Shown: positions 3,945-42,332 of the stretch, in pieces | Numbering within the stretch: position 1 is the stretch's first letter | Layout of the letters: each line of letters opens with the position of its first letter | Origin: Candidatus Latescibacterota bacterium | GTDB lineage: Bacteria; Latescibacterota; UBA2968; UBA8231 | Assembly: GCA_965200315.1 (NCBI GenBank) | Contig: OZ241362.1 | Location: forward strand, 1,472,001-1,536,000 | Length of the DNA stretch: 64,000 nt | Direction of reading: 5' to 3' | The notes under the pieces: model-generated | The model's input: the letters and a program-made list of their open reading frames with translations, nothing else | Told to the model about the DNA's origin: nothing | The model's database searches: none | Made by a program: the position numbers and the translations under genes

Positions 3945-3969
3945 CTATAGCAGTCCTACGTTATTCGTG
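3945..3969 (+). repeat. MITE-like terminal repeat, left copy
   Basis: CTATAGCAGTCCTACGTTATTC matches the reverse complement of 10599-10620 at 18/22 positions. Confidence 0.55.
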
Positions 3970-4010
3970 CGATGCGGCGCATCGCTGGGTGCGCGGGCGT
4001 CTCGCCCGCG
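3969..4010. repeat. two adjacent GC-rich REP-like palindromes
   Basis: GCGATGC-ggc-GCATCGC and CGCGGGCG-tct-CGCCCGCG. Confidence 0.5.
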
Positions 4011-4035
4011 GGCAGGCCAGCGGCACCAAGTCGAT

Positions 4036-4575
4036 ATGACCAGCTTGGCCAACTCGGTCCCCGGGCTGATCAGCTATTGGGTGCCGCTGGTGTCGAGTCC
4101 GTTTTATTACGCCAGCTCGGAAAACAACTGGGACGAACTGATCCTGCCCTATCTCCCTACCTCGCTGGTGCCCCACGACCTAGCGGCCATTCGCGCTTTT
4201 TTTGAAGGCAACGAAGGGCAGGCGAGTGCGATTCCTTGGAAAGTGTGGCTGACGCCGCTGTTGAGCTGGTTGCCGCTGATCGTCGCGCTGCACGTGGCCA
4301 CCTTGTGCCTGATGGTTGTCGTGCGCCGGCACTGGGTCTGGTGGCCCTTGCATCCGATTGGCTTTCCCATCAGCTCGACCTTTCACTGGATGGCTTTCAA
4401 CGCCTTTTTGGCCTGGCTCATCAAGGGGCCAGTCCTGTACTACGGCGGCGTCCATCTCTACCGCCAAGTGCGGCCGTTCTTCTTGGGGATGATCCTCGGG
4501 CACTTTGCGATCTTCGGGGTCTTCTGGGTCATCGACTCCTTCACGGGCATGATCGGCAACGGTCTGTTCCTCTGA
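4036..4575 (+). pseudogene. DUF6785/DUF6784-type polytopic membrane protein, N-truncated and internally deleted
   Basis: FYYASSENNW...IPW..WL.PL..W...RRHW joins directly to the C-terminal WWPLHPIG...RPFFLGMILG. The paralogue at 14107 continues RRPWMEGERL at this point. Confidence 0.65.
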
Positions 4576-14106: not shown

Positions 14107-14862
14107 CTAGATCTGCGGCTGGCGGAAGACCGCGCTGGCCAAGGCCGTTCCCTCGCGTCCGTTGATCATCTCGATAGGGACCTGCATCATCGGATAGAGG
14201 AGACGTTCCCCTTCCATCCACGGCCGGCGCAAAAGCACCATCAGGCTAATCGACACTAAGTAGAGAGCGAGGAGGAAAACAGACCAATAGCCCAACGCCT
14301 CCAACCAGCCTTGCCAAGGCACCGACATCCCCTTGGGCAGGCCCTCGTAGAAACCTTGGATCAACGGACCATCGCTGGGGGCGATCCAAGCGGGAACATA
14401 GGGCTGGATCAGTTCGCCCCAATTGTTTTCGGGAGTGGCATAGTAAAAGACCCCCGTGATCATGGGCAGCAAGTGCTCGACCAAACCAAAGGTGGGAATC
14501 GAGGCCGACACCATCATCATGGCGTAAATCAGCACCAACTCCTCCCGCCTCAGCGCCAAATTGCGGGCCAAGGTTCCCACCAAGATATTACCCAACACCA
14601 AGTAGAAGAACAGAAAGAGCGCGACGGGATTGCTAAAGCACCAAGCCATGAAGGTGCCCTGGATGATGGCGTTGGCGTAGATGGTGCCGACGCCAATGAG
14701 CAGGCACAACAAGGCCCCCAACAAAAAGGCCCGAATGGAAAGGGACTGGCTCTCCGGGGCCGGAGTCTCCTCCAAGTTGGCTCGTCTGATAAAAGTCTCG
14801 GCCATCCGCTCCCACCTCGCCTGTCGAGCACCCGACTCGCTATGAGGGTCTCTAGGCGTCAC
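14107..14862 (-). pseudogene. DUF6785-type membrane protein, C-terminally truncated
   Basis: ELVLIYAMM, FYYATPENNW, VPW..W, RRPWMEGERLLYP; stops after about 250 aa with no WWPLHP C-terminal part. Confidence 0.6.
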
Positions 14863-21422: not shown

Positions 21423-22912
21423 ATGCACATCGGCGACCAATGGATGCAGTTGCACAGCCGCGACAAAGCTCTCAATCAGGCGTTCGCTCGGCCCTTTCCG
21501 GTCGGCGTCGAATACTACCGCCCACCCGTGCCACCGCCTGAGTACTGGGCCGAGGACTTTCGCCGGATTAGCACCGCTGGTATGAGCATCGTCCGCGTCT
21601 GGTACTCTTGGGACTGGGTCGATACCCTGCCCAACCACTACGAGTTCGACGATCACGGCCTAAAGGTCTGGGTCGATACCCCGCTAGGCACCCACATGGC
21701 CTGCCCGGCTTGGATGTTGCGCTCCCACCCGGACATGCGAGTCGTCCGCCGCGACGGCCGTGTGCAACAAAACACGACCGGCGCGTTCGCCGCACACGGA
21801 GCGATGATCCACAATTTCGACCACCCGATGTGGCGGGTTTACGTCGAGCACTATCTGCGCCAATTCGTGCCGCGCTACAAAGACCACCAAGCCTTGGGGG
21901 TCTGGGGCACTTGGGACGGCATTGGCTACGCCGGCGCGTGGACGGCTAACCCTGATCAAGGGCGGTGCCGGGGCCATGTTCTGGCAGTACCGACCAGAGT
22001 ACATGACCTACGAAGCACCCGGACTCAATATAGCTGCACTCGACGGCGAGCCGACCGAGCGACTTCACGCGGCAACCGAGACCATCGTCCAGATCGACCG
22101 CATCGCCGCCCACCTGCCGCTGGCCATTCCACGCGCCGATGTGGCCATTGCCTACAGTGGACCAAGCGACGACGCATTTGATTTTAACGACCAGGGCGTC
22201 CAGTTCATCCAGCACCACCGGGCGCTCTACCGCGCCCTGTGGGCACAAAGCGTCTCACCTCGTAGCCGACGGCTACTTTGGTACCTTTGCCGGCAAGGGC
22301 CACTGGAGTTTCAAGCCGCCCGAGGGCCTCAGCGATCTCATCGACTGCCGGAGCGCCGATTTTGATGTCGTCGCTGATTTCGATGTCCAGGCTGGCAAAA
22401 ACATCGTGCAGATGGAGTGTGGCACCTTTGCCCTGCCGGCGGGGACGACCTATTCAATCCTAGAAGCCCAAGGTGCCACGGCGCCCATCGCTACCATCGG
22501 CGACGAGGTGGTCGGGGTGCGCTCAGCCGCCGGGCGCTTCACTTGGTACGGGTTTGCGCTCTCGGCTACAGCTTCGTCGCAAGTGCCCGGGCAACCGGGG
22601 TCACCCGCGCCAGTGGGGCTGGTCCACGATGAGGTAGCGATCGCACTGCTGGCGACCGCGGGCGTCGAGCCGTGGTTTGCGCTTACTGGCGATCGCATCG
22701 TCGCCTTTCGCCGCCACTTTCGGCAGGGCGGGTCGCTGATCTTCGCGCTCAACTTAGAACGGCGCACAGCGCGGACGCGGGTGCAGCCACGCTGGCCGAT
22801 AAAATCGGCCCGAGACCTGCTAGGCGAACGAGATCTCGCGCTCTGCGACGGAGCCTTTGAGCTGACGCTAGCGTTTGGCGAGGTGGCGGTGATACACTGT
22901 GCGGATCGCTGA
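21423..22912 (+). pseudogene. GH42-like beta-galactosidase, frameshifted and deleted
   Basis: GVEYYRPP.P...W.ED...SW..V N-terminus. FWQYRPE...EAPG lies in a second frame (from about 21950) and the C-terminus in a third frame (from about 22255). Confidence 0.7.
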
Positions 22913-24084: not shown

Positions 24085-25368
24085 ATGAACGCTGATTCGC
24101 TCGAAATACAACCCCTGCAAAAACCTCTCGACGCCGAAGTCTCCGTTCCCGGGTCCAAAAGCTATACCAACCGGGCGCTGCTGGTCGCGGCACTAGCCAA
24201 CGGAGAATCGCACCTTACGGGCGCACTCTTTAGCGACGACACCGACTACATGGTCCAAGCATTGTGCAAACTCGGCGTCTTTATAGAGGCCGATCCAAAG
24301 GCCGCTAGCTTTGTGGTCGCAGGCAATGGCGGACGGATTCCCGTCGATGGTGCCGAGCTGTACATCGGCAATTCGGGCACCACTTCACGGTCGATCACAA
24401 GCTATGTCGCGCTCGGCAATGGAACCTTTGTCATCGACGGCGACGCGCCCATGCGCCATAGCCGACCGATGGCCGATCTGCTCGACGCACTTGGCCAGCT
24501 CGGTATCGACGCTCGCTCGCGCAATGGATGCCTACCCATAGAGGTGCAAGCCAAGGGGTTCAGAGGTGGAAAAACCCGGCTCGACGCCAGCAAGAGCAGC
24601 CAGTTCCTCACTTCGCTGCTGCTCGTCGCTCCCTACGCCGCCAACGGCTTGGAAATCGAAATGGTCAGCGAGTTCAAGACCGAATATATCGACATTACTA
24701 TGGCGGTAATGCAGGCATTTGGAATCGAGGTCGAGCACGACGAGTACCGGCGCTTTCGCGTCGCTGGTAGCCAATGCTATACGCCCCGTACCTACGCCAT
24801 TGAGCCGGATGCTTCCAACGCCTCGTACTTCTTTGCCGCCGCTGCGCTCACCGGCGGTCGGGTACGCGTAGCCGACATTGCCGCCAACTCAGCCCAAGGC
24901 GATATCCACTTCGTCGATGTGCTCGAGAAAATGGGCTGCACGGTCAACCGCTACGCCCGCGGAGTTGAGGTGATCGGGCCGGATCAACTCAGGGGAATCG
25001 ACGTCGATATGAAGGCCATATCAGATACCTCGCTGACGCTAGCTGCGATCGCGCCCTTTGCCAAGAATCCTGTGCGGCTCCGCAACATCGAGCACACGCG
25101 CTGGCAGGAGACCGACCGGATTGCCGCTATGGTCGCCCAATTGCGTCGGCTCGACGTAGCAGTAGAAGAACACAGAGATGGCGTTACGATCGCGCCGTCT
25201 AAGCCCAAAAGCAGCAGCATAGATACCTATAAGGATCACCGAGTAGCTATGAGTTTTGCTCTAGTCGGATTGCGAGTGCCCGGAATCCACATCAACGACC
25301 CAGGATGCGTCGGCAAAACTTTTCCGACATACTTCGACGTCTGGGATCAGATAAGAAGCTCGGCGTGA
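24085..25368 (+). CDS. aroA: 3-phosphoshikimate 1-carboxyvinyltransferase (EPSP synthase)
   Basis: PGSKSYTNR, GNSGTT, SSQF, ETDRI, DHRVAM, KTFP. Confidence 0.97.
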   Translation: MNADSLEIQPLQKPLDAEVSVPGSKSYTNRALLVAALANGESHLTGALFSDDTDYMVQALCKLGVFIEADPKAASFVVAGNGGRIPVDGAELYIGNSGTTSRSITSYVALGNGTFVIDGDAPMRHSRPMADLLDALGQLGIDARSRNGCLPIEVQAKGFRGGKTRLDASKSSQFLTSLLLVAPYAANGLEIEMVSEFKTEYIDITMAVMQAFGIEVEHDEYRRFRVAGSQCYTPRTYAIEPDASNASYFFAAAALTGGRVRVADIAANSAQGDIHFVDVLEKMGCTVNRYARGVEVIGPDQLRGIDVDMKAISDTSLTLAAIAPFAKNPVRLRNIEHTRWQETDRIAAMVAQLRRLDVAVEEHRDGVTIAPSKPKSSSIDTYKDHRVAMSFALVGLRVPGIHINDPGCVGKTFPTYFDVWDQIRSSA

Positions 25369-25450: not shown

Positions 25451-26830
25451 TTATTGAGTAAACTGGGTCACGTTGGCGATGCCGCCCGGCTGAGTCAACG
25501 CATAGACGATTAGGTTGACCCCGAACTGCAACCCGCGCTCTCGTGCATCAGCCAGCGGATCGCCCCAGTACCAGCTAATATTTAGGTCGCTGAAGACCAC
25601 CGCAACCCGACCGCGTAGTTCCAACATCTCCAAATCGAACACATTGCCAGCCGGTGCGCCGCCCATCGGCGGACCATCGGGAAAATCCCAGAAGCTATAG
25701 TAAAGATCGTGGCTCTTGGGCACTTTCTGCCACTTGGAGCCGTCGCTACCCTTGGTTATTATTTTTTTTAGCACCAGCGGATCTTTCATCAGGGCCTTAA
25801 ACTGGCGGTCAAACGGCGTACCCGAAACCCCGGCTTCTTTGCCCTCGAGTCCGTTCTCAGCGTCGCTTTGGCGAATTTCCTCAGCATAGAGAAAACCACC
25901 ATTCTTGAGATAGTCGCCTAGGTTGGTTTTCTCTGTATCGCTGATTTGCAAAACAGCATCGTTGCCCGTCACATAAATCATAGGGGCGTCCATAATGCGC
26001 GGATCCGAAAACTCCAAGGTCGTGCCCTCAATGCGGGCATTAATTTGGGTATGGTCGCGCATATAGCGCATCAACTCCTCTACCGCAGTTGGGAATCGAT
26101 CGCTGTTCTTGTCTGCGATATCGTAGTCAATGACTGTCATGTTAAAGAAGCCGCGGATATTGCGTTTATTGTCGGGATCATGAATCAAGATCGCTTGATA
26201 GCGGCCGATGTCTAAGTCGCCGACATTGAGCAATTCGTGCCTCAGGCTCAGAGCCTCTTGCACTGGTGCCGACGTTTCCGCCAGTTCGATCATCGCGACC
26301 TCGTCGAAGGCCAACTCTTCGGGCTTGGCACCTGAAAAGGCACCCAAGACCTGCGTACCGGGTAAAACCGAACTCAAGAGGTCGCTACCTACCGCGCTTA
26401 CATCGGCTATCGCCGATATATCCTGTGGCAAATCCGGTGGTGCCATCGATTGTAGCATCTCCATCTGCACTTCGGATATCTCGGGTCGCTTGGCTAAGTC
26501 GAAGTTCTTTTCGAGAATTGGCGGAGGAGCGCGGAAAATGATTAGCTGCTCTTTTGCTTCTTCTTCGCCAATGCCAAATAGATAATCGTAAACGAAGACG
26601 CCAGCGTGGATGGCTACCGAGAGGAAAAAGGCCACTCCCATGCTCATCCGGCGGCCAGTGGTAGCCGTATATAGGGCGTATAACAGTACCCCAACACCCG
26701 CCAAACCGGCGGCGATTACCACCCACTTGGACAGGATGAAAAGGACGTGAATGAGAAAGGCCGCGCCGACAGCCATATAGGCCGTTTTTTGGCGCTGGGC
26801 CTGTACTGCTTTTTTATACTCGTCTACCAC
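25451..26830 (-). CDS. DUF4159-domain protein with N-terminal TM helices (TonB-like SxxxH)
   Basis: C-terminal P.IY.TG...L.DYL.NGGFLY...GVNLIVYALT; TM helix LSVAIHAG; follows exbBD. Confidence 0.75.
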   Translation of the reverse strand: MVDEYKKAVQAQRQKTAYMAVGAAFLIHVLFILSKWVVIAAGLAGVGVLLYALYTATTGRRMSMGVAFFLSVAIHAGVFVYDYLFGIGEEEAKEQLIIFRAPPPILEKNFDLAKRPEISEVQMEMLQSMAPPDLPQDISAIADVSAVGSDLLSSVLPGTQVLGAFSGAKPEELAFDEVAMIELAETSAPVQEALSLRHELLNVGDLDIGRYQAILIHDPDNKRNIRGFFNMTVIDYDIADKNSDRFPTAVEELMRYMRDHTQINARIEGTTLEFSDPRIMDAPMIYVTGNDAVLQISDTEKTNLGDYLKNGGFLYAEEIRQSDAENGLEGKEAGVSGTPFDRQFKALMKDPLVLKKIITKGSDGSKWQKVPKSHDLYYSFWDFPDGPPMGGAPAGNVFDLEMLELRGRVAVVFSDLNISWYWGDPLADARERGLQFGVNLIVYALTQPGGIANVTQFTQ

Positions 26831-26867
26831 AGTCTTTCTCCCTCTTGGAAGGGCCTAGAAACCTCAT

Positions 26868-28005: not shown

Positions 28006-31000
28006 TTAGAGGACGCGAGCTTCCTGCATTACCTGTAGCTGCTCTCTGGCATAGTCCACCTGCGTCACGTATTTGGGGTTGTCGCCATAGCTGTCGACGA
28101 CCTCCTGAAAGACGGTACCAGCCTGACGGAATTCCTCCTGGGCCATATAGGCGGCACCGATGTTGACTAGTGAATTGACAGCTTGATCGCTCTTGGGATA
28201 CTTCTGCTGTACTTCCTTGAAGACCGCCATTGCCTCGTCGTAATTTTTCTCAGCCAAAAGCTGTTCGCCCGTTGCATAAAGATTGTAGGCATCGATCTCA
28301 GCCAAATGTCCGAGCAGAGTCCTTGCCTTGTTGGGCAGCGCTCGATCTTGGGCAATCAACTTGTCAACGGGAAAGCGATCCAAGAAAGTCTGGTAGCTTG
28401 CGGTGGCCTTCTCGTAATCCTTGAGGCCGTAATAGTAATCTCCGAGCGTAAATTGGCTACGTGCCCCATACGTACCGTTGGCATGTTCAGCAACTATTCT
28501 CTCGAAAACTGGCACCGCTTCTTCCTTGCGGTCGAGGTTGATCAGGCACCAAGCCTTGTTGTAGAGTGCATCGTCCACATGGCTCGACTGAGAATAGCGC
28601 CTAATGATTCGGTCGTAGTAGACCATGGCATCTAGGTAGTGCTGGTTTTTGTTCTCCACGCCGCTTCTATTGGTCATGTTAAACAGGGCATCGCCAGCAC
28701 GAAAAAGCGCCTCAGACGCATAGCGGGACTGCGGATACTTATCTGCTAGGCTAGCAAAAATATCGCTGGCGTCGCGCCATTTACCCATCCGATAGTGGGC
28801 CCAAGCATCGTAGTAATAGGCATGCACAGCGCGCTCGTCGTCAGGATATTGGGTGTAGTAGGTATTGAACGCTTGGGACATCGCTGGCAGCACGTCAACA
28901 TTGCCGTTAGCCGATAGTTGGTTATAAGCTACGCCTATTTGGAATTGGGCATTTTTGGCCCAAGCAATCTGCGGATAGTTTTCGATGATGGTGTTATACG
29001 TGGCAATCGCTTGGACGAACTGCTCCGACCTGTAGAAACAGTTGCCTTGGACGAAGAGCGCGTTGGCAATGCTCTCAACATTGATGGCCAAGTCGATGAG
29101 TTCCTGAGCTGCTTCAATACTCTGTTGAAACTTATCCAGCTTGAAGTAGGCATTGGCCAAGCGAATTAATAAACGCTCCCGGTCTTCAGTGGAGGTAGTA
29201 GTAGCCAACATCTCTTCATAGATGCGCACCGCTTCCTCTGGATTGCCCTTCTTCTCGGCCATTGAGATTAGCTGCAGCCGTGCCGAACGCACCAAGCTCT
29301 CGTCTCCAGAAGCAATAACCTCGTTTAGCAGCTTCTCCGCCTCGGCATCATTACCTTCCGCAGAGTACGACAGTGCCATCGAAAAGGAGACCTTTAGCTG
29401 CATCGCCTTGGGGACTTTGGTGTCCAATAGCCACTTGTAATCGAGCAACGCACGGTCGTAACGGCCCGAGTAGTGATAGGCCAATGCACGTCCGTAGCGG
29501 GTATCGCGAATGACATCGCTTTCAGGGTACTCTTCAAGCACCATGGTATAGCGCTCGACTGCATCGACGTAGTTTTTATTATTGAGGTCGAGCTGAGCCA
29601 TCTGGAAATGGGCCCTAGCCTCCAAATCGCGGTCACCGGTCACGCCTTCTAGCAATTGATTGAGCAGCGCACGTCCCTCGGCGATGCGATCTTGAGAAAT
29701 GTAGAGGTTAGCCGCCTCAATCAGCGCGGCAATGTATGTCTCGCGAGCATCGCGGTCAACCTCGGAGAAAGCAGCGATGGCCTCGTCTTTCCGGCCTTCG
29801 TCTCGGTAGAGAATACCAAGGCCATAGTAAGCATCAGCCGTATGCCGCGTATCCTGATAGCTTTCCGTTATAGCCTTGTAGGCTTCAATGGCCTCCTCAA
29901 CTTTCTGCTGCTCGTAGTTTAACCGAGCGATGCGCAACAAGCACAACGGCGCTTGGTCGGATCGGGGAAAGTTGTCCACTGCCTGCGTGTAGCTTGCGAT
30001 AGCCTGATCCGCCACGCCGAGTTTTTCGGCAGACCAACCTGCGCTATACAGCGCTGCGGAGCGCAAACCCGTATCGCTATCCGGGTAGTCTCCCAGCAGT
30101 TGTAGGTAGTCTTCACGGGCAGCAGCATAGTCTCCGGCGAAGTACTTGGCTTCGCCTTTCTGATACTGAGCGTTTGGCGGATAAGGCGTATCCCCGTAGA
30201 GTTCAATCACTTGGTTGTAAGCAGTCCACGCCTCGTCGAACTTCTCCCACTCCATGTAGTTGTCGCCGATTCTCATCTGCACCTTGGCTTTATAAAAGCG
30301 TTCCTCGGCGGTTTCTTGGGCGGCGATCAACTCTTGGTAGGCTTCCTCAAATTGGTCTGTTTTGCGGAAGATCTCAGCAACGCGTAACGAGGAAGTCTCA
30401 AAAAGCTGTCGATAGTTTTCAAAATCGACATTCTTCCCCTCGCGAAACGAACCGCGCAAGAGTTCAAACATCCGGTCGTAGAGATCGCGCACATCGCGGT
30501 AGGCTTTAATGGCCTCTTCGTCGTGCCCCATCTGGTCGTAGGCGTTGGCCTCTAAATAAAGGGCTTGGGCAATAACCGGACTACTGGGATACTTATCGGG
30601 AACTACTTGGGCCATCTCAACAGATTTAGCGTACTCGCCCTTTTCATAGAACGCACTAGCGATGCGGAACTGCGAATCCGGCGCATAGCGGTCTTGCGGA
30701 TAAGCCGACAACATGCCGTTGAGCGTTTCGATGGATTGGTCGTACTCTTTTGTATTAAACTCGCTCCAGCCCGCGTAAAAATACGCCTTGCCAGCTTCCG
30801 GCGTCTCGGGGAACAACTCGACGTAGTGCTTGTATTCCTTTGTTGCCTCGCCATACTCTTTGGCGAGAAAGCGAGTCTCGGCAACTTGGAACTGCACCAA
30901 GGACTTGAAATCCTCGGCTACGCTTCCTACATCGAGAACTTGGCGATAGGCTTCCACCGCTTCTTCGTGTTGCCCGCTCTTTTTGTAGGCATTGCCCAGC

Positions 31001-31251
31001 TGATACCAAGCTGCCGCGACTACGGGCAATTCCAAGTCGTTGCCAAACACTACCCGCACACTGTCGGTACGCACGGCCTTGCTGTCAAACTTGACGATCT
31101 TTGAATACTCGATGATCGCCCCTTCAAACTCGCCAAGGGCGTAGAGAGATTGTCCGGCGTCAAAACTGGTCTTCAGATTTTGCGGCACCGGTAGAAAAAG
31201 GCTAGCTCCTAGCCCCAATCCCAGCGCGATAAGTCCGGCCCAGACCGTCAT
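28006..31251 (-). CDS. large TPR protein (CpoB/BamD-like repeats), 1081 aa
   Basis: N-terminal hydrophobic anchor; many A.Y..G...Y...yP.S-type TPR units; AAGGAG RBS. Confidence 0.88.
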   Translation of the reverse strand: MTVWAGLIALGLGLGASLFLPVPQNLKTSFDAGQSLYALGEFEGAIIEYSKIVKFDSKAVRTDSVRVVFGNDLELPVVAAAWYQLGNAYKKSGQHEEAVEAYRQVLDVGSVAEDFKSLVQFQVAETRFLAKEYGEATKEYKHYVELFPETPEAGKAYFYAGWSEFNTKEYDQSIETLNGMLSAYPQDRYAPDSQFRIASAFYEKGEYAKSVEMAQVVPDKYPSSPVIAQALYLEANAYDQMGHDEEAIKAYRDVRDLYDRMFELLRGSFREGKNVDFENYRQLFETSSLRVAEIFRKTDQFEEAYQELIAAQETAEERFYKAKVQMRIGDNYMEWEKFDEAWTAYNQVIELYGDTPYPPNAQYQKGEAKYFAGDYAAAREDYLQLLGDYPDSDTGLRSAALYSAGWSAEKLGVADQAIASYTQAVDNFPRSDQAPLCLLRIARLNYEQQKVEEAIEAYKAITESYQDTRHTADAYYGLGILYRDEGRKDEAIAAFSEVDRDARETYIAALIEAANLYISQDRIAEGRALLNQLLEGVTGDRDLEARAHFQMAQLDLNNKNYVDAVERYTMVLEEYPESDVIRDTRYGRALAYHYSGRYDRALLDYKWLLDTKVPKAMQLKVSFSMALSYSAEGNDAEAEKLLNEVIASGDESLVRSARLQLISMAEKKGNPEEAVRIYEEMLATTTSTEDRERLLIRLANAYFKLDKFQQSIEAAQELIDLAINVESIANALFVQGNCFYRSEQFVQAIATYNTIIENYPQIAWAKNAQFQIGVAYNQLSANGNVDVLPAMSQAFNTYYTQYPDDERAVHAYYYDAWAHYRMGKWRDASDIFASLADKYPQSRYASEALFRAGDALFNMTNRSGVENKNQHYLDAMVYYDRIIRRYSQSSHVDDALYNKAWCLINLDRKEEAVPVFERIVAEHANGTYGARSQFTLGDYYYGLKDYEKATASYQTFLDRFPVDKLIAQDRALPNKARTLLGHLAEIDAYNLYATGEQLLAEKNYDEAMAVFKEVQQKYPKSDQAVNSLVNIGAAYMAQEEFRQAGTVFQEVVDSYGDNPKYVTQVDYAREQLQVMQEARVL

Positions 31252-32281: not shown

Positions 32282-33028
32282 CTAGTTTGCCTTAGCGACT
32301 TTAGGAACGACCGTGCCGTCCTTGTAGGTCTTGCCGATATCTCGGACGAATTTATAGGAAATATTGGTGGTCTCCACCGGCTCATTGCGAAAGTCAAATC
32401 TCAGGACTACATCGAGCACTTGGACTTCGATATCACTCACGTCGGGATGGAGCACGGGAAAAATAACAAAGCCTTCTGACTCTTGGCCGCTGAATATCTC
32501 CTCGTCTTTGAGCATCGTCCGCCGCAGCAAGTCGCGGCGCTCTTGATAGCGAGCATATTCGTTGCCTCTATAGCCTATGGCATAGGCGCGATAATACGTG
32601 TCGAGCTGCTCAAAGTTGAGGCTCCAATACTCGCGCTTATTGCTTGCTTTGACAACAATTTTGCTCGGATCAATCTTGACTTTAGGGTAGGCGTAATTCT
32701 TAACGCCGAGGCGGAAGACAGTGAAACGCTGTTTTTCTTCGTCGGTTCCCCAAAATACCGTATTGCCAAAGGTATAGGGATTTGTGGACTTAGGGCCCGC
32801 TTGGGAATTGTTGAAAAACTGGCGGTTCAACTCCTCGTCGGTCATCGGCTTGAGCCGCACTTCAAAGCGATCCTGGGCAAATGTCAGCGTCCCGTCATCT
32901 GCCACACTTATAGACGAGGCCTGATCTTGGCCAGGCTGCAATGGCCCCGTGTAATAGCTATACCCACAGCCCAACATACCCGAGCCGATAATCAAAGCCA
33001 AGAATAATACTCGCGTAAACTCCATCAT
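32282..33028 (-). CDS. uncharacterised lipoprotein (paralogue of 47802..48560)
   Basis: Lipobox MLGC; shares ELNRQF, NPYTFGN, RFTVFRL and YPKV blocks with the 47802 gene. Confidence 0.8.
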   Translation of the reverse strand: MMEFTRVLFLALIIGSGMLGCGYSYYTGPLQPGQDQASSISVADDGTLTFAQDRFEVRLKPMTDEELNRQFFNNSQAGPKSTNPYTFGNTVFWGTDEEKQRFTVFRLGVKNYAYPKVKIDPSKIVVKASNKREYWSLNFEQLDTYYRAYAIGYRGNEYARYQERRDLLRRTMLKDEEIFSGQESEGFVIFPVLHPDVSDIEVQVLDVVLRFDFRNEPVETTNISYKFVRDIGKTYKDGTVVPKVAKAN

Positions 33029-33969
33029 TCAGACACTCCTCGGTGGTATCGCTGTGTGTGCAAAGAGGCTTTTAAGCGCCCCCAAGATATCGACTCCACG
33101 GCCGTAAATATACCCTCTAGCGGCATCAGGATCAAGTCAGCAAAGCGGTCGGAAAAGCGATACGAATTGTGTTGGCCCGAAAGCGACCACTTAGCATCAA
33201 AAAGCTCTGAATGCACGTCAAAATCGTTGAACTCTACGTTAAAACCAAGGATTTCATTTTCCCGCAAGATATGCTCTTCACTCTGAAAGACCGCATTGAC
33301 ATCGACACGATCAAAGGGCACGAGCATGACTTCATAGTTTGTCACTCCCTCTCCTCCCAATCCACTTATAAACTCGACCGCTGCCTCGGTATAAGGACCA
33401 TCGGATAGCGCGTACCAAGCAGCGGCAGAAAAATTGACGAAAAAATCCTCGTCAGGCGGTGGGCCAGCCAAAACAAAGTGATTAGCTTCAGCTCCATTGC
33501 GCCGTATACGCTCTTCGTGGCTCAACTCGGTGAAATTGGCGAATTGTCCACCTGAGTGGTCCGCGTCAATAAATAATTCCATAGCGTCGTCTTGGAAAAG
33601 TGCCGTAGCACTACCGGCAGGACGATCAATCTGGTGTATATCATCGCGAACCTGAGCAGCAATGTAGAGCTTGTTTTCTGCTTTATTCCACCCCACCATG
33701 AGACGAGCAGCAAAATCATCCGAATCGCTCGCCTCAACTTCTGGATTAATCAGGTCGTGGAATTGACCCGTTAATATGGCGTAGGAGTCGCCTACAACTT
33801 CCCAATCTTTCAAATCGCCGTCAATAACGGGAACTAAGTGATCGGGGAATTGAAAGGCTCTATAGGCCACTCCTTCGGGGTAATGACCCAAAACTGGTTT
33901 AACCGAACCGGCTGTGAACTGTAGCACCAGTACTAAAAAAAATAAACGCAACCACAGCACCTCGGCCAC
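33025..33969 (-). CDS. secreted CBM9/DOMON-like protein with C-terminal SWGRLK tail
   Basis: Signal peptide; P.IDGDL.DW, W....LYIA..V.DD, DA.ELFID, GFNV..ND; paralogue of 57410..58306. Confidence 0.7.
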   Translation of the reverse strand: MAEVLWLRLFFLVLVLQFTAGSVKPVLGHYPEGVAYRAFQFPDHLVPVIDGDLKDWEVVGDSYAILTGQFHDLINPEVEASDSDDFAARLMVGWNKAENKLYIAAQVRDDIHQIDRPAGSATALFQDDAMELFIDADHSGGQFANFTELSHEERIRRNGAEANHFVLAGPPPDEDFFVNFSAAAWYALSDGPYTEAAVEFISGLGGEGVTNYEVMLVPFDRVDVNAVFQSEEHILRENEILGFNVEFNDFDVHSELFDAKWSLSGQHNSYRFSDRFADLILMPLEGIFTAVESISWGRLKASLHTQRYHRGVSE

Positions 33970-34523: not shown

Positions 34524-37178
34524 ATGGTCAGGTTATTGGTAGCGGTGCTCGGCGTCGCGTTTGTGTTCAGCAACGGCTATGCCGAAATCAAGCGGTGGCG
34601 GATCGGCGACGATGTACATCCCTGGACTCTGCGGCCGGTTACCGGTCGCCTCGACTTGGGGCGCAGTTGGGCGGTCGAGCTGATCGCCGATGACGATGGC
34701 GATGGACTCATCGACGAAGACCCAGTCGAACTAATCGACAACGACGACGACGGCCAGATCAACGAAGACCCCGTTGATCCGCAAGTCGACAATGATGGCG
34801 ACGGCCAGATCAATGAAGACCCAGACAACAACCGCGATGATGATGGCGACGGACTTATCGACGAAGACCCACTTGAACTAATCGACAATGACGGCGACGG
34901 ACTCACTGACGAAGATGGTCCCGACTCACAGATCGACAACGACGGTGATGGTCTGCTCAACGAAGACGGGCTGTACACTCCTTACGATGATGACTGGGAT
35001 GGCTTGCTAAACGAGGACCCGGCTAATGCTCTCGATGATGACGGCGACGGACTCATCGACGAAGACCCACCGCTGCCCGAACACGGCCAAGGCGTCACCA
35101 CCTGGCTGCGGCCGGTGCGTCTAGACAGCCTGCGCAACCTCGCCTATCTGCTCAACCAGCGCTTCAAGGCCGGCGAGTTCGGCGGCGTTATCCCCGGCAA
35201 GGATACCCAGCGCCCCTTTATGGTGGTGCCAAGCGAATATGGCTTCCGACGCGAGGTCTCCGATCCCATATCGGCCGACTACTGGGCAGTTGCGGGGGTA
35301 ATCGACCGCAAAGAGGCCGAAAAGGCCGTCGATGGAAACCTGAAGACAGACTTCACCTCCACTAAGTATGGTCGTGGTGGGATTGCTGTCAACCTGATGG
35401 GTTACTACTATATCAACCGTATCGTCTTCCGCCCGCAGCCAACCTTGCCCGGCGGTACCATTGCCAATTACTTTATCAACTACGGCGATCAGACCTCCAT
35501 CTATAGGCTCTCTGAGGCCATTCGGGCGGACCGGACACTAGTTCAAGCTGTCCGGGGCCAATTCAACCCGGTAATCAAGGACCTCCTATTCGATCCACCT
35601 TTTGTCGCCGGCCGTATTGACATGGTATCGATTGATCTAGAAGGAAAACTTAGCCAGACCGCCGAAATCGGGCACTTCGGCGACGGCTATGCCATCGATG
35701 GGCAGTACATCTCGGCCATCATCGACGTGGGAACACCTACTCCGCGCATCCGTCGCTACGACCGCGAGATCGAGCAGTTCTCCGCCTCGGACCGCGAGGG
35801 TTATGAAAACCAGTTTCCCCTCGATGTTGCTGGCGGCCAAGTCAACTGGGGCAAAGTGCGCTGGCGCGGACACCGCGAAGGCCGCGAAGGCGATATCCGT
35901 ATCCAGTTCCGCGTTGGCAACGCCCTCGACACCCATATATATGCCCGCCGCTTAGGCCCCGGCCTCTCTGACACCCAAGACGAAAATGGCGTTCCCCTAG
36001 ACCTTTTCTCTTGGGCGAAGCTTCCTGAAGGCCGCGTCCCCGAACACGAACTTCCATACAATGAGCTAGGGGTTGATCTGGGCGACGACGGGCTCCTCGG
36101 CTGGAGCTTCTGGTCGGCCCCTTTCAAGCTCGAAGACGCCCTCATCGACGACAGCCTGCCCGAAGCCGAGTGGCAAAACACGGGCGTCCAGCTACCCCTT
36201 CCCGGCGGAACGCGCTACATCCAGTTCCGCATCTTCTTCGACTCCGCCCAGCACAGCGCGGCCCTGTTGGACTTCATCGAGTTCGACTACGACGCACCGC
36301 TGGTGTCGGGGGGCATTGTCGCTGAGATTTTTCCGCCGCACGTCCCGTTGGGCGAGGAGACGGCTTTTCGCTACTTTGTCCGACCATTCTTCAAAACCGA
36401 CGAGACGACCGCCTTCAACCGGATCGAGATCGCCGTGCCCAGCGCGGACACGCGCATCGACACCTTGCGCTTCGACGGCCAAGACTGGACCGAAATCGCC
36501 GCTGGCACGGGGGCCGACCCTTTGAGCGAGATGCATCCCATCCGCCGCGCCCCAGCCGAGGGACGCGCCGACAGCTTGGGGCAATTTGCCCAGCGCGTGG
36601 TCACAGACCCGCGCACGGGCTCGTCCAAACTGCACATCAAGCTGCCTCTGATGGGGGCCGAGCACTTCCAATTCGGCCAGAATATCGAGATCGTGTTCCG
36701 CTCCAAGCTCTTTCGCGGCTCAGAGGAGTTCACCAGTTCGGTGTGGAATGACCAAGGTGATCCCAGTGTCGAATCCATCCCGCAACCGGCCGAGGATGGG
36801 GACGCCACCCCCGACATCGCCACCAATGCCCTTCTCGTGGTCGCCGACGAGATTGACCAAATCGTCAAGGCTCCCCACATCGCTCCCAACCCCTTCACCC
36901 CCAACGGTGATGGCATCAACGACGAGGTCACTTTTTCCTTTGACCTTTTCCTCGTCCTCAATCAGGTCAATGTCCAAGTCGAAATCTACGATCTGTCCGG
37001 CCGCCGCATTGCCCAGATTCAGACCGGCGGCTCGACGGCAGGCAGTCTCCAAGTCGCGTGGGATGGCCGCGACAGCCAAGGTCAAGTCGCCCGGCCGGGC
37101 ATCTATCTCTACCGGCTTGCCATTGACTTAGACAACACCTCCACGGAGCACTCGGGCACCCTATCGCTGGCCTATTGA
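34524..37178 (+). CDS. large secreted protein with Asp-rich repeats and CHU_C/FlgD-Ig-like C-terminal domain
   Basis: Signal peptide; eight DxDxDGxxxED repeats; PNPFTPNGDGINDE...YDLSGR...WDGRD...PGIY...LAY. Confidence 0.85.
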   Translation: MVRLLVAVLGVAFVFSNGYAEIKRWRIGDDVHPWTLRPVTGRLDLGRSWAVELIADDDGDGLIDEDPVELIDNDDDGQINEDPVDPQVDNDGDGQINEDPDNNRDDDGDGLIDEDPLELIDNDGDGLTDEDGPDSQIDNDGDGLLNEDGLYTPYDDDWDGLLNEDPANALDDDGDGLIDEDPPLPEHGQGVTTWLRPVRLDSLRNLAYLLNQRFKAGEFGGVIPGKDTQRPFMVVPSEYGFRREVSDPISADYWAVAGVIDRKEAEKAVDGNLKTDFTSTKYGRGGIAVNLMGYYYINRIVFRPQPTLPGGTIANYFINYGDQTSIYRLSEAIRADRTLVQAVRGQFNPVIKDLLFDPPFVAGRIDMVSIDLEGKLSQTAEIGHFGDGYAIDGQYISAIIDVGTPTPRIRRYDREIEQFSASDREGYENQFPLDVAGGQVNWGKVRWRGHREGREGDIRIQFRVGNALDTHIYARRLGPGLSDTQDENGVPLDLFSWAKLPEGRVPEHELPYNELGVDLGDDGLLGWSFWSAPFKLEDALIDDSLPEAEWQNTGVQLPLPGGTRYIQFRIFFDSAQHSAALLDFIEFDYDAPLVSGGIVAEIFPPHVPLGEETAFRYFVRPFFKTDETTAFNRIEIAVPSADTRIDTLRFDGQDWTEIAAGTGADPLSEMHPIRRAPAEGRADSLGQFAQRVVTDPRTGSSKLHIKLPLMGAEHFQFGQNIEIVFRSKLFRGSEEFTSSVWNDQGDPSVESIPQPAEDGDATPDIATNALLVVADEIDQIVKAPHIAPNPFTPNGDGINDEVTFSFDLFLVLNQVNVQVEIYDLSGRRIAQIQTGGSTAGSLQVAWDGRDSQGQVARPGIYLYRLAIDLDNTSTEHSGTLSLAY
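34689..35069 (+). repeat. eight coding Asp-rich repeats of 16-17 aa
   Basis: D[DN]DxDG[LQ]x[DN]ED units with degenerate 48-51 bp DNA repeats. Confidence 0.85.
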
Positions 37179-37272: not shown

Positions 37273-39372
37273 ATGGCGCGCAGCACTCGCCTTTTTTTCT
37301 GCGCGCTCCTACTAGTCGCCCTCGCACTGCGGCTGGGCTATCTGTGGGAACATCGCGCCAATCCCTTCTTCGACGCGCCCGTAGTCGACGCCCAGACCTT
37401 TCTCAAACAGGCCCAAGCCCTTCTTGCCAGCGGTCCATTTTGGGAAGGAGACGAACCGTATTGGCAACCCCCCCTCTACGTCTACCTGCTGACACTCGTT
37501 TGCTGGCTCCTTCCAGCCTCGTACTTCGTCGGTATCCGGCTCGTACACGTGGGCCTCGGCGTTGTTTCCTGCCTATTGGTGTACGCATTGGCCCGGTACG
37601 CCTTTGGCGAGCAGGTTGGCCGCATCGCCGGCTTCATGGCGGCTTTATGCGGTTCTTTGCTCTACTTTGAAGGCGAGCTATTGGCCGTGCCAGTGGAAGT
37701 CTTCCTCAATCTCCTGCTCCTATACGGCCTGTTGCTGGCGTGGAGACGCGATCATGGGCACTATTGGGTGCTAACCGGCCTCATCGCGGGCCTTGCGGCT
37801 CTCACTCGTCCCAATATCTTGCTCTTTATCGCGGCCTTTTGCGCCTGGGCACTGTGGCACCGGCGCACATCTGCCTATCGTTCCCTGTTCTTTTTCATCG
37901 TTCCCATAGCCTTGGTTATCCTGCCCGTTACCTATCGCAACTGGACTATTGAGTCGGATCTCGTCTTTATCTCCTCCAATGCCGGCGTCAATTTCTACAT
38001 TGGCAACAACGCCGACTACGAGCACACGGTCTCGCTGCGTCCGGGTATGCAGTGGGAGACCATGATCGCCGAGGCGGAAAACTCTGGGCACAAGACCGCA
38101 GCCGCCCAATCGGCCTTTTTCTTAGGCAAAGCCCTCGATTACATAACCACGCAGCCCCTCGATTATCTCGGTCTGCTCTGCAAAAAGGCATTCCACTTTT
38201 GGAGCGGCCCAGAGATTAAGCGCAATCAAGACATATACTACGCCCGCCAACACTCGCAGATTTTGAGTTTCTTGCTCTGGGATTGGCATGTGTCGATACC
38301 CTTCGGCCTGATCGGCCCGCTGAGCTTACTTGGCTTGGGGCTGAGTATGAGGGGGGAGTGGACGCCGCCGATTGCCTTGCTACGGATCTACGCTCTCGTA
38401 TATACGGCCTCGGTCATACTTTTTTTTCCCGTAGCCCGCTACCGCATGCCAGTCGTGCCGGTGCTGATCGCTTTTGCTGCTTTTGCCGCCTTTCACATCT
38501 ACTTAGGCGTGCGCCGCAGAGCCTATATCCGCACCACAGTGCTCGCCTTGCCTCTAGTAGGTCTATTAGTCCTGTGCAACATAACCGAGGCCGCGCCGAC
38601 TGGAGAAGACGCTCAACTCTACTTCGACCTTGGCGAGGTTCATCTGCGCAAGCAAGACTACGCCCTGTCTGTGCGTTACTCGCGCCGGGCACTGGAATTG
38701 GACCCAGAGTACAATTATGCCCGCCACAATCTAGCCGTGGCGTACTTTCACCAAGAGTGCTATGGGGAAAGCGAACACGAGGCCCTCCAGACCCTAGCGG
38801 AAAATCCCCGGCGCACCGACACTCGCGTCCTCCTAGGCCGGATTTACCTAGCGACCAATAAACCACAGCAAGCCGCAGCACATTTACGTCACGTCCTCAA
38901 ACGAGATCCAGAGTCCGGCATGGCCCACTACTACTATGGTCGCCTGCTCTATCGCCAAGGGCACTATGCCGAGGCCGCAACCCACTTGCAACAGGCACTT
39001 TCTTGGCAGCCACAGGACTTCTGGCTGCACTACGAGCTGGGGAGAGCCTTCCAGCAAGCCGGGCAAGCCAAAGCCGCACTCGACCAGTACCACCAAGCCC
39101 TATCGCTCGCAAGGCGACCCGAAGCCCTAAATGCCATCGGTGCCTTGCACTTACTCGCTGGGCGCACACAGGAGGCGCAAACGCATTTTCTTCAAGCCAT
39201 AGAACTAGCCCCGGATAATCCAGAAGTTCACGTCAACCTCGCGCTCATCGAACTTGAAAATGGGGACCATGCCGCGGCCATTGACCGGCTGCGGCAAGTG
39301 CTGGCGAGCGGTACCTTCCCCCACGCGCAGCGCCTGCTCGACGAAGCCTATCGCCGCCTCGAATCGCCATAG
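37273..39372 (+). CDS. GT-C (ArnT/PMT-like, family 39) glycosyltransferase fused to C-terminal TPRs
   Basis: Polytopic N-terminus with PPLY, LTRPN, G.NFYIGN, RYRMP; TPRs from about aa 450. Confidence 0.85.
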   Translation: MARSTRLFFCALLLVALALRLGYLWEHRANPFFDAPVVDAQTFLKQAQALLASGPFWEGDEPYWQPPLYVYLLTLVCWLLPASYFVGIRLVHVGLGVVSCLLVYALARYAFGEQVGRIAGFMAALCGSLLYFEGELLAVPVEVFLNLLLLYGLLLAWRRDHGHYWVLTGLIAGLAALTRPNILLFIAAFCAWALWHRRTSAYRSLFFFIVPIALVILPVTYRNWTIESDLVFISSNAGVNFYIGNNADYEHTVSLRPGMQWETMIAEAENSGHKTAAAQSAFFLGKALDYITTQPLDYLGLLCKKAFHFWSGPEIKRNQDIYYARQHSQILSFLLWDWHVSIPFGLIGPLSLLGLGLSMRGEWTPPIALLRIYALVYTASVILFFPVARYRMPVVPVLIAFAAFAAFHIYLGVRRRAYIRTTVLALPLVGLLVLCNITEAAPTGEDAQLYFDLGEVHLRKQDYALSVRYSRRALELDPEYNYARHNLAVAYFHQECYGESEHEALQTLAENPRRTDTRVLLGRIYLATNKPQQAAAHLRHVLKRDPESGMAHYYYGRLLYRQGHYAEAATHLQQALSWQPQDFWLHYELGRAFQQAGQAKAALDQYHQALSLARRPEALNAIGALHLLAGRTQEAQTHFLQAIELAPDNPEVHVNLALIELENGDHAAAIDRLRQVLASGTFPHAQRLLDEAYRRLESP

Positions 39373-39497
39373 GAGGTTCCTTGTCTAGCTGCCTCCAAGC
39401 TCTTTTACTTCTTTCTTGCACGGCACCCATCTTCAGTGCTGGGCCGCTCTTTACCGACGAAACCCAAGCATCAATCGCTTCATATCGGAGTAAACTT

Positions 39498-40832
39498 ATG
39501 CGTCTTATCCTGCTTTTTTTGGTCTTATGTACCGCCTGTACCCGCGAAACACCCGATCCACCCCAAGCTCCTGCCTCGCCCACCGACTCGGCAGCCCAGA
39601 CCTTTGCCGCTGGTCGCGCACTCCAAGCCCGCGGCCTCTTTACCCCAGCCGAGCAAGCCTATCGCCAAGCACTGCAACAAGCTCCAGACAACCCCCAATA
39701 CCACTACTATCTCGGCGTTGTATTGCATGCCCAGAGTCGTTTTGCCGAGGCGCAGGCCCAGTTTGAGAAGGCGCTTGATCTAGAACCCGACTACGCTGGC
39801 CCCCGCATCGCCTTGGGCAAAATGTTCTATGATGTGCATGGAAAAGTAGAAGAGGCTCGTCAACTCCTCACCGAGGCACTGGAACTAGCCCCCAACGCCG
39901 TCGAAGCGCGGTATATCTTGGGCGTGATCCACCAACGCGAAGGCCAGCTACAAGAGGCCCGCGAAATTTTCGCCGCCATCGCCGCGGCCGACTCTACCCA
40001 CCTTCAAGCTCGGCTACAGCTAGGTCTAGCAGACCTAAAGTTGGGCAACTACCAAGAGGCCGAGCGCCAACTGCGCCAAGTCGCGCACCTGAGTCCCCAC
40101 GAGCCGGCCGCGTTTCTCGGAATCGGGCAAGCTCTGTTGCGCATGGGCCGCGCCGCAGAAGGGCAACGCGCCCTTGAGCGTAGGCACGTCTTGGACGAAC
40201 AAAACGCCCAGCTCAAGCCCCACCAAGACGCGGTGCGCCAGAACCCCGATCAACCCCAAGCCCACTCCAATCTCGCCGCCCTCTACAGCCGCTTTGGGCG
40301 TCTCAAACTGGCCGTCGAGCACTACCGCCAGTCCATCCTCATCGACTCAACCTATGGCCTAGGGTACCAAGGATTGGGCACCCTGCTCCAGCGTCGGGAC
40401 AAGGACGAGTTGGCAGCGCGTTACTACCTCGAAGCCCTGAGCCACGACTCGACCTTGGCCGAAAGCCACAACAATCTGGGCTTGATCTTTCACAAGCGGG
40501 GGGAACTAGAAAAGGCCCTCAAACAATACGAGCGGGCCGTGCGATTTTCCCCATCTACGGGTTTTTACCACTCCAATCTCGGCAATGCGTATCTCGAAAT
40601 GGATCGACTAGACCAAGCGCAGGCAGCCATCGAGCAGGCCATCGAATTAGACGCAAAGCTCTATAGTGCTCACATACTGCTCGGCGATATCCATGCCCGC
40701 CGCGGAGAATTCGCCCGGGCCATTGCGCTCTGGGAGGACATTCCGTCTGGTGGGGCGGGCAGTGAGGCTTTACAAACCAAAATGGCCGAGGCCCGACGAC
40801 AGCTCTCCGCGCAAGGGGACGCGCCGCGATGA
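39498..40832 (+). CDS. TPR-containing putative lipoprotein
   Basis: MRLILLFLVLCTAC signal; repeated TPRs (ESHNNLG etc.). The frame is also open back to a TTG at 39381. Confidence 0.8.
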   Translation: MRLILLFLVLCTACTRETPDPPQAPASPTDSAAQTFAAGRALQARGLFTPAEQAYRQALQQAPDNPQYHYYLGVVLHAQSRFAEAQAQFEKALDLEPDYAGPRIALGKMFYDVHGKVEEARQLLTEALELAPNAVEARYILGVIHQREGQLQEAREIFAAIAAADSTHLQARLQLGLADLKLGNYQEAERQLRQVAHLSPHEPAAFLGIGQALLRMGRAAEGQRALERRHVLDEQNAQLKPHQDAVRQNPDQPQAHSNLAALYSRFGRLKLAVEHYRQSILIDSTYGLGYQGLGTLLQRRDKDELAARYYLEALSHDSTLAESHNNLGLIFHKRGELEKALKQYERAVRFSPSTGFYHSNLGNAYLEMDRLDQAQAAIEQAIELDAKLYSAHILLGDIHARRGEFARAIALWEDIPSGGAGSEALQTKMAEARRQLSAQGDAPR

Positions 40833-42331: not shown

Positions 42332-42332
42332 T

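Follow-up and report, generated by a model that had tools for sequence, protein, structure and literature searches.

A DUF4159 protein with a TonB/TolA-like layout encoded behind exbB-exbD in Candidatus Latescibacterota

In a stretch of 64,000 nucleotides (nt) from Candidatus Latescibacterota bacterium (assembly GCA_965200315.1, contig OZ241362.1, positions 1,472,001 to 1,536,000; hereafter the window), we found a gene for a protein of 459 amino acids (aa) that combines a His-bearing membrane anchor, a long tether and a C-terminal DUF4159 domain, and that follows an exbB-exbD pair. We consider it reasonably probable that this protein is a TonB/TolA-like periplasmic force transducer with DUF4159 as its output domain. 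It would work like TonB or TolA, but we assign it to neither family. TonB/TolA-like transducers that end in a vWA domain and are encoded in TPR-tolQ-tolR operons were described in 2025 (Williams-Jones et al., PMC12204202), and they are the closest precedent. An earlier reading of the sequence alone had proposed a new energy-transducer class with a DUF4159 output domain; the transducer layout stands, but its novelty is tempered by this precedent.

The sequence-only reading had placed an S71-x3-H75 motif in the last transmembrane (TM) helix at nt 26606-26620 and an AxxxH motif in an earlier helix, and we found both at these places (S71 codon at nt 26618-26620, H75 codon at nt 26606-26608; A24-x3-H28 in the earlier helix). 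The two residues of the S71/H75 pair differ in their conservation. Alignment A3 has 101 rows, of which 68 are membrane-anchored; 5 mis-aligned signal-peptide rows were set aside, and 28 rows have no residue in the H75 column. His occupies this column in 65 of the 68 anchored rows, with L, N and Q once each. Distant relatives make up most of these rows, 51 of the 68 being less than 40% identical to the query, and His is kept in 48 of those 51. Four residues ahead of the His, in the S71 column, we found Ala in 36 anchored rows, Ser in 26, Gly in 5 and Thr in 1, a small residue being present in 67 of the 68. The family motif is therefore small-x3-His ([A/S/G]-x3-H) and not a strict S-x3-H, so that conservation was borne out for H75 but not for S71. 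Among close homologues (alignment of 121 rows), 119 rows keep His at H75, S71 is Ser in 85 and Ala in 36, and H28 is His in all 120 rows that have this residue. In the solved TonB-ExbBD and TolAQR complexes, as presented in PMC12215075, the Ser-x3-His pair makes conserved contacts with TM1 of ExbB or TolQ.

A second conserved element starts about 10 residues past the helix and exceeds the helix itself in conservation. In this box F99 is kept in 60 of the 68 anchored rows, P104 in 66, K108 in 56, K114 in 57 and P116 in 59, and residues 99-126 are near-invariant in the 121 close-homologue rows. TonB has its D-box just after the TonB helix, where the ExbD dimer captures it by strand addition; the D-box is described as a proline-flanked strand with the pattern hydrophobic-polar-hydrophobic-polar-hydrophobic-hydrophobic-polar (PMC10907165). 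The box of the paralogues, KP-[LM]SVKFVQ-RAP, matches this described pattern exactly (alignment A6).

Judged from its sequence, the N-terminal anchor is predicted to be N-in, which would leave most of the protein in the periplasm. Four Lys/Arg residues of the N-terminus and two of the RR loop (R60, R61) would lie in the cytoplasm and one in the periplasmic turn, and an acidic stretch follows helix 3. This charge distribution obeys the positive-inside rule and fits an N-in/C-out topology. The closest single-domain relatives (40-61% identity, 260-290 aa) have plain signal peptides, which likewise places the DUF4159 domain outside the cytoplasm. A topology prediction had been proposed as a check of the sequence-only reading, and by both of these lines the domain is predicted to be extracytoplasmic, not cytoplasmic. 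Single-TM forms occur in the orthologues at 48-65% identity and in all paralogues, and the two extra N-terminal helices are found only in close orthologues.

The AlphaFold2 (AF2) model of the protein, built on the 101-row alignment, has a mean predicted local distance difference test (pLDDT) value of 79. It shows helices at residues 2-57 and 62-85, a region of low confidence from residue 86 to about 200 (pLDDT <60) and, beyond it, an alpha/beta domain modelled with confidence up to residue 459. From helix to domain the tether measures 115 residues in the query and 112-133 in 8 relatives, which is near the domain II of about 100 residues given for TolA/TonB-like transducers (PMC12204202). It had been called a Pro/acidic linker; it is indeed acidic, with 22 acidic and 7 basic residues among the 120 of positions 86-205, but Pro-rich only mildly (10 Pro, 8%).

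DUF4159 is the only Pfam domain of the protein. The family (PF13709) matches residues 234-445 with an E-value of 4.9e-24 and 85.4 bits, against a cutoff of 25.9, while TonB_C and VWA have no Pfam match in the protein; Pfam thus confirms that DUF4159 stands in the place of TonB_C. NCBIfam gave no match for the protein. A Foldseek search of the PDB with the model returned a single strong match, 4i66 (Hoch_4089 from Haliangium ochraceum; E 1.2e-9, TM-score 0.78), which is a structural-genomics entry with no function assigned, and no TonB or TolA domain matched the model. In the literature that was searchable, the terms DUF4159, PF13709, Hoch_4089 and 4I66 occur only in the 2015 Pfam paper.

The fold could also be taken to indicate an enzyme, anchored in the membrane and active in the periplasm, of the class I glutamine-amidotransferase or ThuA-like kind, for which the motor neighbourhood would be incidental. 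Pfam, as stated in PMC4702930, used structure to place DUF4159 in the class I glutamine-amidotransferase-like clan, and weak Foldseek matches (E >0.01 throughout) were obtained to ThuA-like proteins and gamma-glutamyl hydrolase, as well as to the IFT52 N-terminal domain and STM3548. We regard an enzyme as very improbable. The 459-aa protein contains no Cys at all, and none is found among the conserved columns, so that the nucleophile of the Cys-His-Glu triad is missing and an amidotransferase role was rejected. Moreover, the near-invariant residues of the domain (G305, Y307, G311, G312, H374, F383, P388, R408, W422, G437, N439 and A444) do not make up such a triad, and the only strong structural match, 4i66, is uncharacterised.

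The sequence-only reading had noted that the gene directly follows exbB-exbD, a place usual for tonB. The DUF4159 gene is the last of a same-strand cluster, 37 bp behind exbD, with aroA convergent beyond its 3' end (24085..25368), and both motor genes have Pfam matches, which confirms the placement directly after exbB-exbD. The membrane Asp of ExbD, D20, is invariant in 29 rows (alignment A4), and the TM2/TM3 motifs of ExbB align with those of solved ExbB and TolQ; judged by sequence, the upstream proton motor, of the ExbB5-ExbD2 type, is intact. The best NCBIfam models for the pair are tolQ (2e-21) and tolR (1.4e-18), both far below their cutoffs. In ExbB, S19 is near-invariant (48 of the 49 rows with a residue there) and is followed four residues later by I, L or V. 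TonB_C, Plug and TonB_dep_Rec had no match in the 52 open reading frames (ORFs) of the window that were scanned, and hence there is no rival transducer nearby. Complex modelling of two copies of ExbD residues 38-135 (alignment A4) with residues 86-135 of the DUF4159 protein (alignment A5) gave a score of 0.02, against a mark of 0.32; run without controls, it speaks neither for nor against an interaction.

To follow the linkage across genomes, we scanned one genome per species (GTDB set), where the best 80 of 362 tblastn-confirmed relatives gave 79 loci. L001-L056 are orthologues (48-97% identity), scanned with our own iterated ExbB and ExbD profiles, and L057-L079 are 23 paralogue loci (26-41% identity, often several per genome), in which the profile calls were confirmed by Pfam. 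Both exbB and exbD are directly upstream in 50 of the 56 orthologous loci, the end of exbD lying 25-128 bp before the match. Three further loci have exbD alone, because the DNA fetched for them reaches less than 650 bp upstream, and another three have no upstream DNA. Thus exbD is directly upstream in 53 of the 56, that is in every orthologous locus with upstream DNA. Two copies of exbD were found in L033, L034, L068 and L072. On a maximum-likelihood tree of 40 members, the clade of the window protein (22 rows, from Latescibacterota, Zhuqueibacterota, Fidelibacterota and a 'Cytophagia' metagenome-assembled genome, MAG) is exbD-linked in 20 of 20 informative rows, and the other clade of 18 rows has 2 linked, 11 unlinked and 5 unknown.

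The linkage is strong, but it is not universal. Among the paralogue loci, exbD(-exbB) occurs at most 2.5 kb upstream in 6 of 23 (L058, L066, L067, L068, L072 and L078), 5 of 23 have too little upstream DNA, and 12 of the 18 informative loci have no exbBD in the fetched DNA. These unlinked loci speak against a transducer and would suit a passive periplasmic scaffold or adaptor, anchored in the inner membrane, of an envelope module formed by a TPR protein, a lipoprotein and a barrel; exbBD would then be merely co-transcribed and would serve a TonB elsewhere or a lipoprotein-borne TonB C-terminal domain (CTD). The same reading gains from the lack of detectable sequence homology to TonB/TolA, and from the TPR protein (1,037-1,100 aa, ahead of the DUF4159 gene in 9 of the 23 paralogue loci) and the lipoprotein (11 of 23), which accompany the gene even where exbBD is missing, as in L059, L060, L076 and L079. 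Nevertheless we think a passive scaffold unlikely. A membrane-buried His in 65 of 68 anchored relatives and a near-invariant box beside the membrane are hard to explain by it. In addition, each of the 53 orthologous loci with upstream DNA has the end of exbD no more than about 130 bp from the gene. Moreover, tonB genes themselves often stand apart from exbBD, as they do in E. coli. As a separate observation, a sulfatase or phosphodiesterase gene stands directly ahead of the DUF4159 gene in L057, L062, L069 and L071, all of which are without exbBD, so that this is a second context that recurs.

Several features of the anchor and the box also weigh against the transducer. The S71 column is Ala in over half of the anchored relatives. 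The full SHLS motif, S-x3-H-x6-L-x3-S, is present in its first half only, as position +7 is D82 and position +11 is G86, and Asp stands in 71 of the 121 close-homologue rows where SHLS has Leu. The box of the window protein, EQ-LIIFRA-PPP, matches the D-box pattern as given in PMC10907165 only partly. The Trp that is the partner of the His in TM1 of E. coli ExbB/TolQ could not be placed in the window ExbB, where I, L or V stands four residues after S19 and the HMMER alignment to solved ExbB starts past TM1. Finally, a profile of the N-terminal module (A6, 30 rows), searched against all PDB sequences with E up to 10, found no TonB/TolA chain; its sole match was a viral membrane helix (E 0.036), which we judged to be due to chance. 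It is thus in motifs and layout, and not through detectable homology, that the protein is like TonB/TolA. A search of the ESM Atlas with residues 1-200 gave best scores of at most 0.79 and no lead. Since the SHLS motif is incomplete, 12 of 18 informative paralogue loci lack exbBD in the fetched DNA, a vWA precedent exists and binding to the motor is inferred, the support for a new transducer class is only partial.

If the protein is a force transducer, its anchor helix (aa 64-86, with S71 and H75) would dock on the ExbB ring at its rim, in the manner of the TonB/TolA helices, and the box about 10 residues past the membrane would be captured by the periplasmic ExbD dimer, as happens with the D-box of TonB. 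The acidic tether of about 115 residues, predicted to be disordered, would span the periplasm. At its end the Cys-free DUF4159 domain, presumably not an enzyme, could act as a 'hand' that grips a partner in the outer envelope. The likeliest candidates are three products of neighbouring genes: the 1081-aa TPR protein, the PorV-like barrel of the operon and the co-travelling beta-sandwich lipoprotein. In this way, the movement of the motor would be passed on to an outer-membrane process. Helix 1 of the close orthologues, with its invariant H28, has the same orientation as the anchor helix, and it may be speculated that the protein occupies two sites on one motor; according to PMC12215075, one TolQR motor binds two TolA helices. 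From docking on ExbB and capture by ExbD to the force and its target, this coupling is what we infer beyond the observed anatomy, conservation, linkage and fold.

The same contacts might be made by a regulator or assembly factor of the ExbBD motor, such as a plug or localisation factor, that conveys no force to the outer membrane. In favour of this, the contact motifs adjoin the membrane, and the window has neither a known outer-membrane target nor a TonB box or a TonB-dependent receptor. However, a tether of 112-133 residues together with a folded, conserved distal domain forms a layout that reaches across the periplasm, which would be needless for a membrane-proximal regulator. We therefore consider a regulator quite unlikely.

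The genes that travel with the transducer candidate are conserved as well. The TPR protein is encoded upstream in every orthologue locus for which 8 kb of DNA on that side was available, and most of these loci also have the genes of the CBM9-like protein, the lipoprotein and the PorV-like barrel. In 10 paralogue loci a member of the lipoprotein family follows the DUF4159 gene directly (35-146 bp downstream), and in one more it lies 1.7 kb downstream. The family is recognised by the motif ...MTDEELN..F...STNPYT[FY]GN.... Its long forms, of 379-440 aa, end in a TonB_C-like domain, for which the Pfam TonB_C match is above the cutoff in L063 (2.9e-7) and at the cutoff in L059 and L060 (3.5e-5 each). 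Weaker TonB_C scores were obtained for the lipoproteins of L072, L076 and L068, the L078 lipoprotein has a TonB_2 match at 1e-3, and the one of L079 has no Pfam match of the TonB_C type. In the AF2 model of the L063 lipoprotein (pLDDT 89), Foldseek matches the C-terminal domain to the TonB CTDs 6sly, 6fip, 7zc8 and TonB in the BtuB complex 2gsk (probability 1.00, E 2e-3 to 7e-3, TM-score 0.5-0.6 on the target), and the N-terminal beta-sandwich to YjhA and MPT63. The window lipoprotein is a short form without the TonB-CTD-like domain. A DUF5683 membrane protein is encoded directly after the big TPR gene in three loci (L063:3347-3985, L068:4828-5424 and L076:6043-6588), and in L068 the motor genes lie two genes beyond it.

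These lipoproteins allow a more daring proposal, a 'split TonB', which we offer as a doubtful one. The anchor, box and tether would reside on the DUF4159 protein and the part that engages the outer membrane on the neighbouring beta-sandwich lipoprotein, whose long forms have the TonB-CTD-like end, with DUF4159 as a reversible clutch that grips the lipoprotein. The motor would then pull PorV/FadL-like barrels and not classical TonB-dependent receptors, and the two His helices would bind two sites on one motor. In the window, whose lipoprotein is a short form, the clutch would itself engage the set of lipoprotein, TPR protein and PorV-like barrel.

The family of the 459-aa protein is large, and its members come mostly from Latescibacterota and other MAGs of the FCB group. 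A word-indexed search gave 308 homologues, the best 120 of which are each at least 68% identical; the one of them with an organism name (P0080) is labelled Candidatus Latescibacterota. When 1.84 billion cluster representatives were searched exhaustively, 733 relatives had an E-value of up to 0.001. Many of them are proteins of 400-430 aa and 23-36% identity in which one N-terminal helix is followed by a conserved basic box, a linker and DUF4159. Searched against 5.8 billion proteins, the N-terminal module profile matched at least 384 protein clusters at 90% identity. Among the best 120 of these 384 matches, 114 have PF13709 as their sole Pfam label and 6 are unlabelled fragments of 151-250 aa, and in none of the 120 is the module joined to vWA or TonB_C. 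The organism labels of MAGs are used here as deposited and are partly inconsistent. Several loci that are 79-97% identical to the window gene carry labels of Gemmatimonadota, Chloroflexota or Rhodospirillaceae (L001, L008, L019, L020, L021, L023, L030, L031, L049 and others); most such loci are labelled Latescibacterota, and the odd labels are probably binning or labelling errors. Tandem TM-His-DUF4159 genes, in two or three copies behind one motor or promoter, were seen in L058:6536-9047, L064:112-2622, L065:158-4234, L067:6688-9182 and L071:328-3261, the array of L065 having three copies, and one genome (contigs CAZTBA01...) has at least 6 paralogue loci.

Table 1. Features of the DUF4159 gene and its operon in the window, and lipoprotein family members in paralogue loci (locus numbering)
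Feature	Position	Strand	Basis
Gene of the TM-His / linker / DUF4159 protein, 459 aa; stop codon 25451-25453, GTG start	25451..26830	(-)	ORF list
Shine-Dalgarno-like GAGGGAG, ending 7 nt ahead of the GTG start	26838..26844	(-)	read from sequence
Hydrophobic helix 1, aa 19-34, with A24-x3-H28 (nt 26747-26761)	26729..26776	(-)	hydropathy
Hydrophobic helix 2, aa 36-56, return helix	26663..26725	(-)	hydropathy; R60/R61 loop cytoplasmic
Helix 3, aa 64-86, family-wide anchor with S71-x3-H75	26573..26641	(-)	hydropathy, alignments
Conserved box past the membrane, aa 96-126: LIIFRAPPPILEKNFDLAKRPEISEVQMEML; D-box-like candidate for a 'motor box' that binds ExbD	26453..26545	(-)	alignments
Acidic tether, predicted disordered, aa 86-200	26231..26575	(-)	AF2 pLDDT <60, composition
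DUF4159 alpha/beta domain, aa 201-459, predicted extracytoplasmic, Cys-free	25454..26230	(-)	pLDDT >90, Foldseek
exbD/tolR-like gene, 135 aa	26868..27275	(-)	Pfam ExbD PF02472 8.3e-28
exbB/tolQ-like gene, 217 aa	27305..27958	(-)	Pfam MotA_ExbB PF01618 2e-23
TPR protein, 1081 aa, YbgF/CpoB- and BamD-like repeats	28006..31251	(-)	TIGR02795 1.7e-88 in 10 stretches
PorV/PorQ/PorP-like outer-membrane barrel, 311 aa	31312..32247	(-)	NF033709 6.1e-22, 78.6 bits, below cutoff 90
Lipoprotein, 248 aa, lipobox LGC, short form of beta-sandwich family	32282..33028	(-)	family comparison
CBM9-like protein, 314 aa, first gene of conserved cluster	33025..33969	(-)	PF06452 2.7e-6
Lipoprotein family members	L058:9156-9929, L059:8761-9981, L060:3960-5180, L063:5766-6905, L064:2744-3514		
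Lipoprotein family members	L068:8866-10062, L072:2275-3588, L076:9158-10396, L078:9137-10408, L079:9155-10477		

Further genes around the operon deserve mention. Large proteins with C-terminal matches to type IX sorting domains (CHU_C / FlgD_ig / Por_Secre_tail-like) flank it at 34524-37178 (+), 51379-54714 (-) and 54751-57228 (-), and the one of 884 aa begins with long Asp-rich repeats of the DxDGDGLIDEDP type. Together with the PorV-like barrel, the sorting-domain proteins hint at a link to type IX secretion. Beside the operon, at 37273-44054 (+), lie genes for a PMT_2 glycosyltransferase-TPR fusion, two TPR proteins and an FG-GAP/ASPIC protein (42333-44054), and TPR and FG-GAP/ASPIC genes like these are also found near the paralogues L059, L060 and L076. 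In L059 and L060 a full-length DUF6785-DUF6784 protein is encoded two genes past the DUF4159 gene (L059:9978-11921 and L060:5177-7111), followed by an FG-GAP/ASPIC protein. The window ORFs 3967-4575 (+) and 14107-14862 (-) match only parts of the DUF6785 model of 498 positions (plus DUF6784) and may be fragments or split genes. Likewise, the Glyco_hydro_42 match at 21423-22181 (+) covers only positions 2-134 of the 376 in the model, and the adjoining, overlapping ORF 22139-22912 (+), in another frame, matches no family; 21423-22912 may be a frameshifted or split beta-galactosidase gene.

To our knowledge, TonB and TolA were for a long time the sole routes by which the energy of ExbBD/TolQR-type motors was known to be carried across the periplasm. 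If the DUF4159 protein is a force transducer, it would represent a second non-canonical class, and the motor-binding N-terminal module would appear as a reusable 'plug' for varied periplasmic tools. For DUF4159, whose structure has been solved, it would also be the first clue to a function, and it would point to a conserved envelope machine of TPR protein, beta-sandwich lipoprotein and PorV-like barrel in Latescibacterota and other uncultured bacteria of the FCB group. The lipoprotein-borne TonB-CTD beside DUF4159 genes would make modular or split force transduction a testable hypothesis.

Set beside TonB, the window protein shares several features. Both have an anchor helix, predicted to be N-in in the window protein, with a conserved His four residues past a small residue (as described for TonB in PMC12215075), and a long non-globular tether that leads to a globular distal domain, and the gene of the window protein adjoins exbB-exbD. 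The beta-strand-prone, proline-flanked box that TonB has just past the membrane (PMC10907165) has a candidate counterpart, which fits exactly in paralogues and in part in the window protein. Unlike TonB, the window protein has no TonB_C and no detectable sequence homology, no TonB-dependent receptor is encoded among the window ORFs scanned, its tether is acidic with only 8% Pro, and its close orthologues have two extra N-terminal helices.

There is a resemblance to the TolA system in the window ExbB and ExbD, whose top-scoring models are tolQ and tolR (with scores that fall far short of the cutoffs), and in the YbgF/CpoB-like repeats of the operon's TPR protein. The two TolA helices per TolQR motor that are reported in PMC12215075 would suit a protein with two His-bearing helices. 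In contrast to TolA, the window protein lacks the TolA C-terminal domain, and neither tolB nor pal is present in the operon. The supplement of PMC12204202 lists a Latescibacteria MAG with a canonical tolR-tolA-tolB-pal-cpoB locus. We therefore rejected the possibility that the operon is the Tol-Pal system of the organism, and regard it as an extra system.

Single-domain secreted proteins of the DUF4159/Hoch_4089 type share the domain and the 4i66 fold with the end of the window protein, and they are without its TM-His anchor, box and tether. The supplement of PMC12204202 does not contain the terms DUF4159, PF13709, amidotransferase or ThuA. In the vWA class, as described in that paper, a TM helix bearing the SHLS His is combined with a motor box and a linker of about 100 residues, and the protein ends in vWA. 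The window protein resembles it in the TM-His, the candidate motor box, the linker of about 100 aa and an end that is not TonB, and also in the gene order of TPR, tolQ-like, tolR-like and transducer. It differs from the vWA transducers in its end domain, DUF4159 with a ThuA/GIFT/class-I-GATase-like fold, and in its hosts, which are Latescibacterota and other MAGs of the FCB group.

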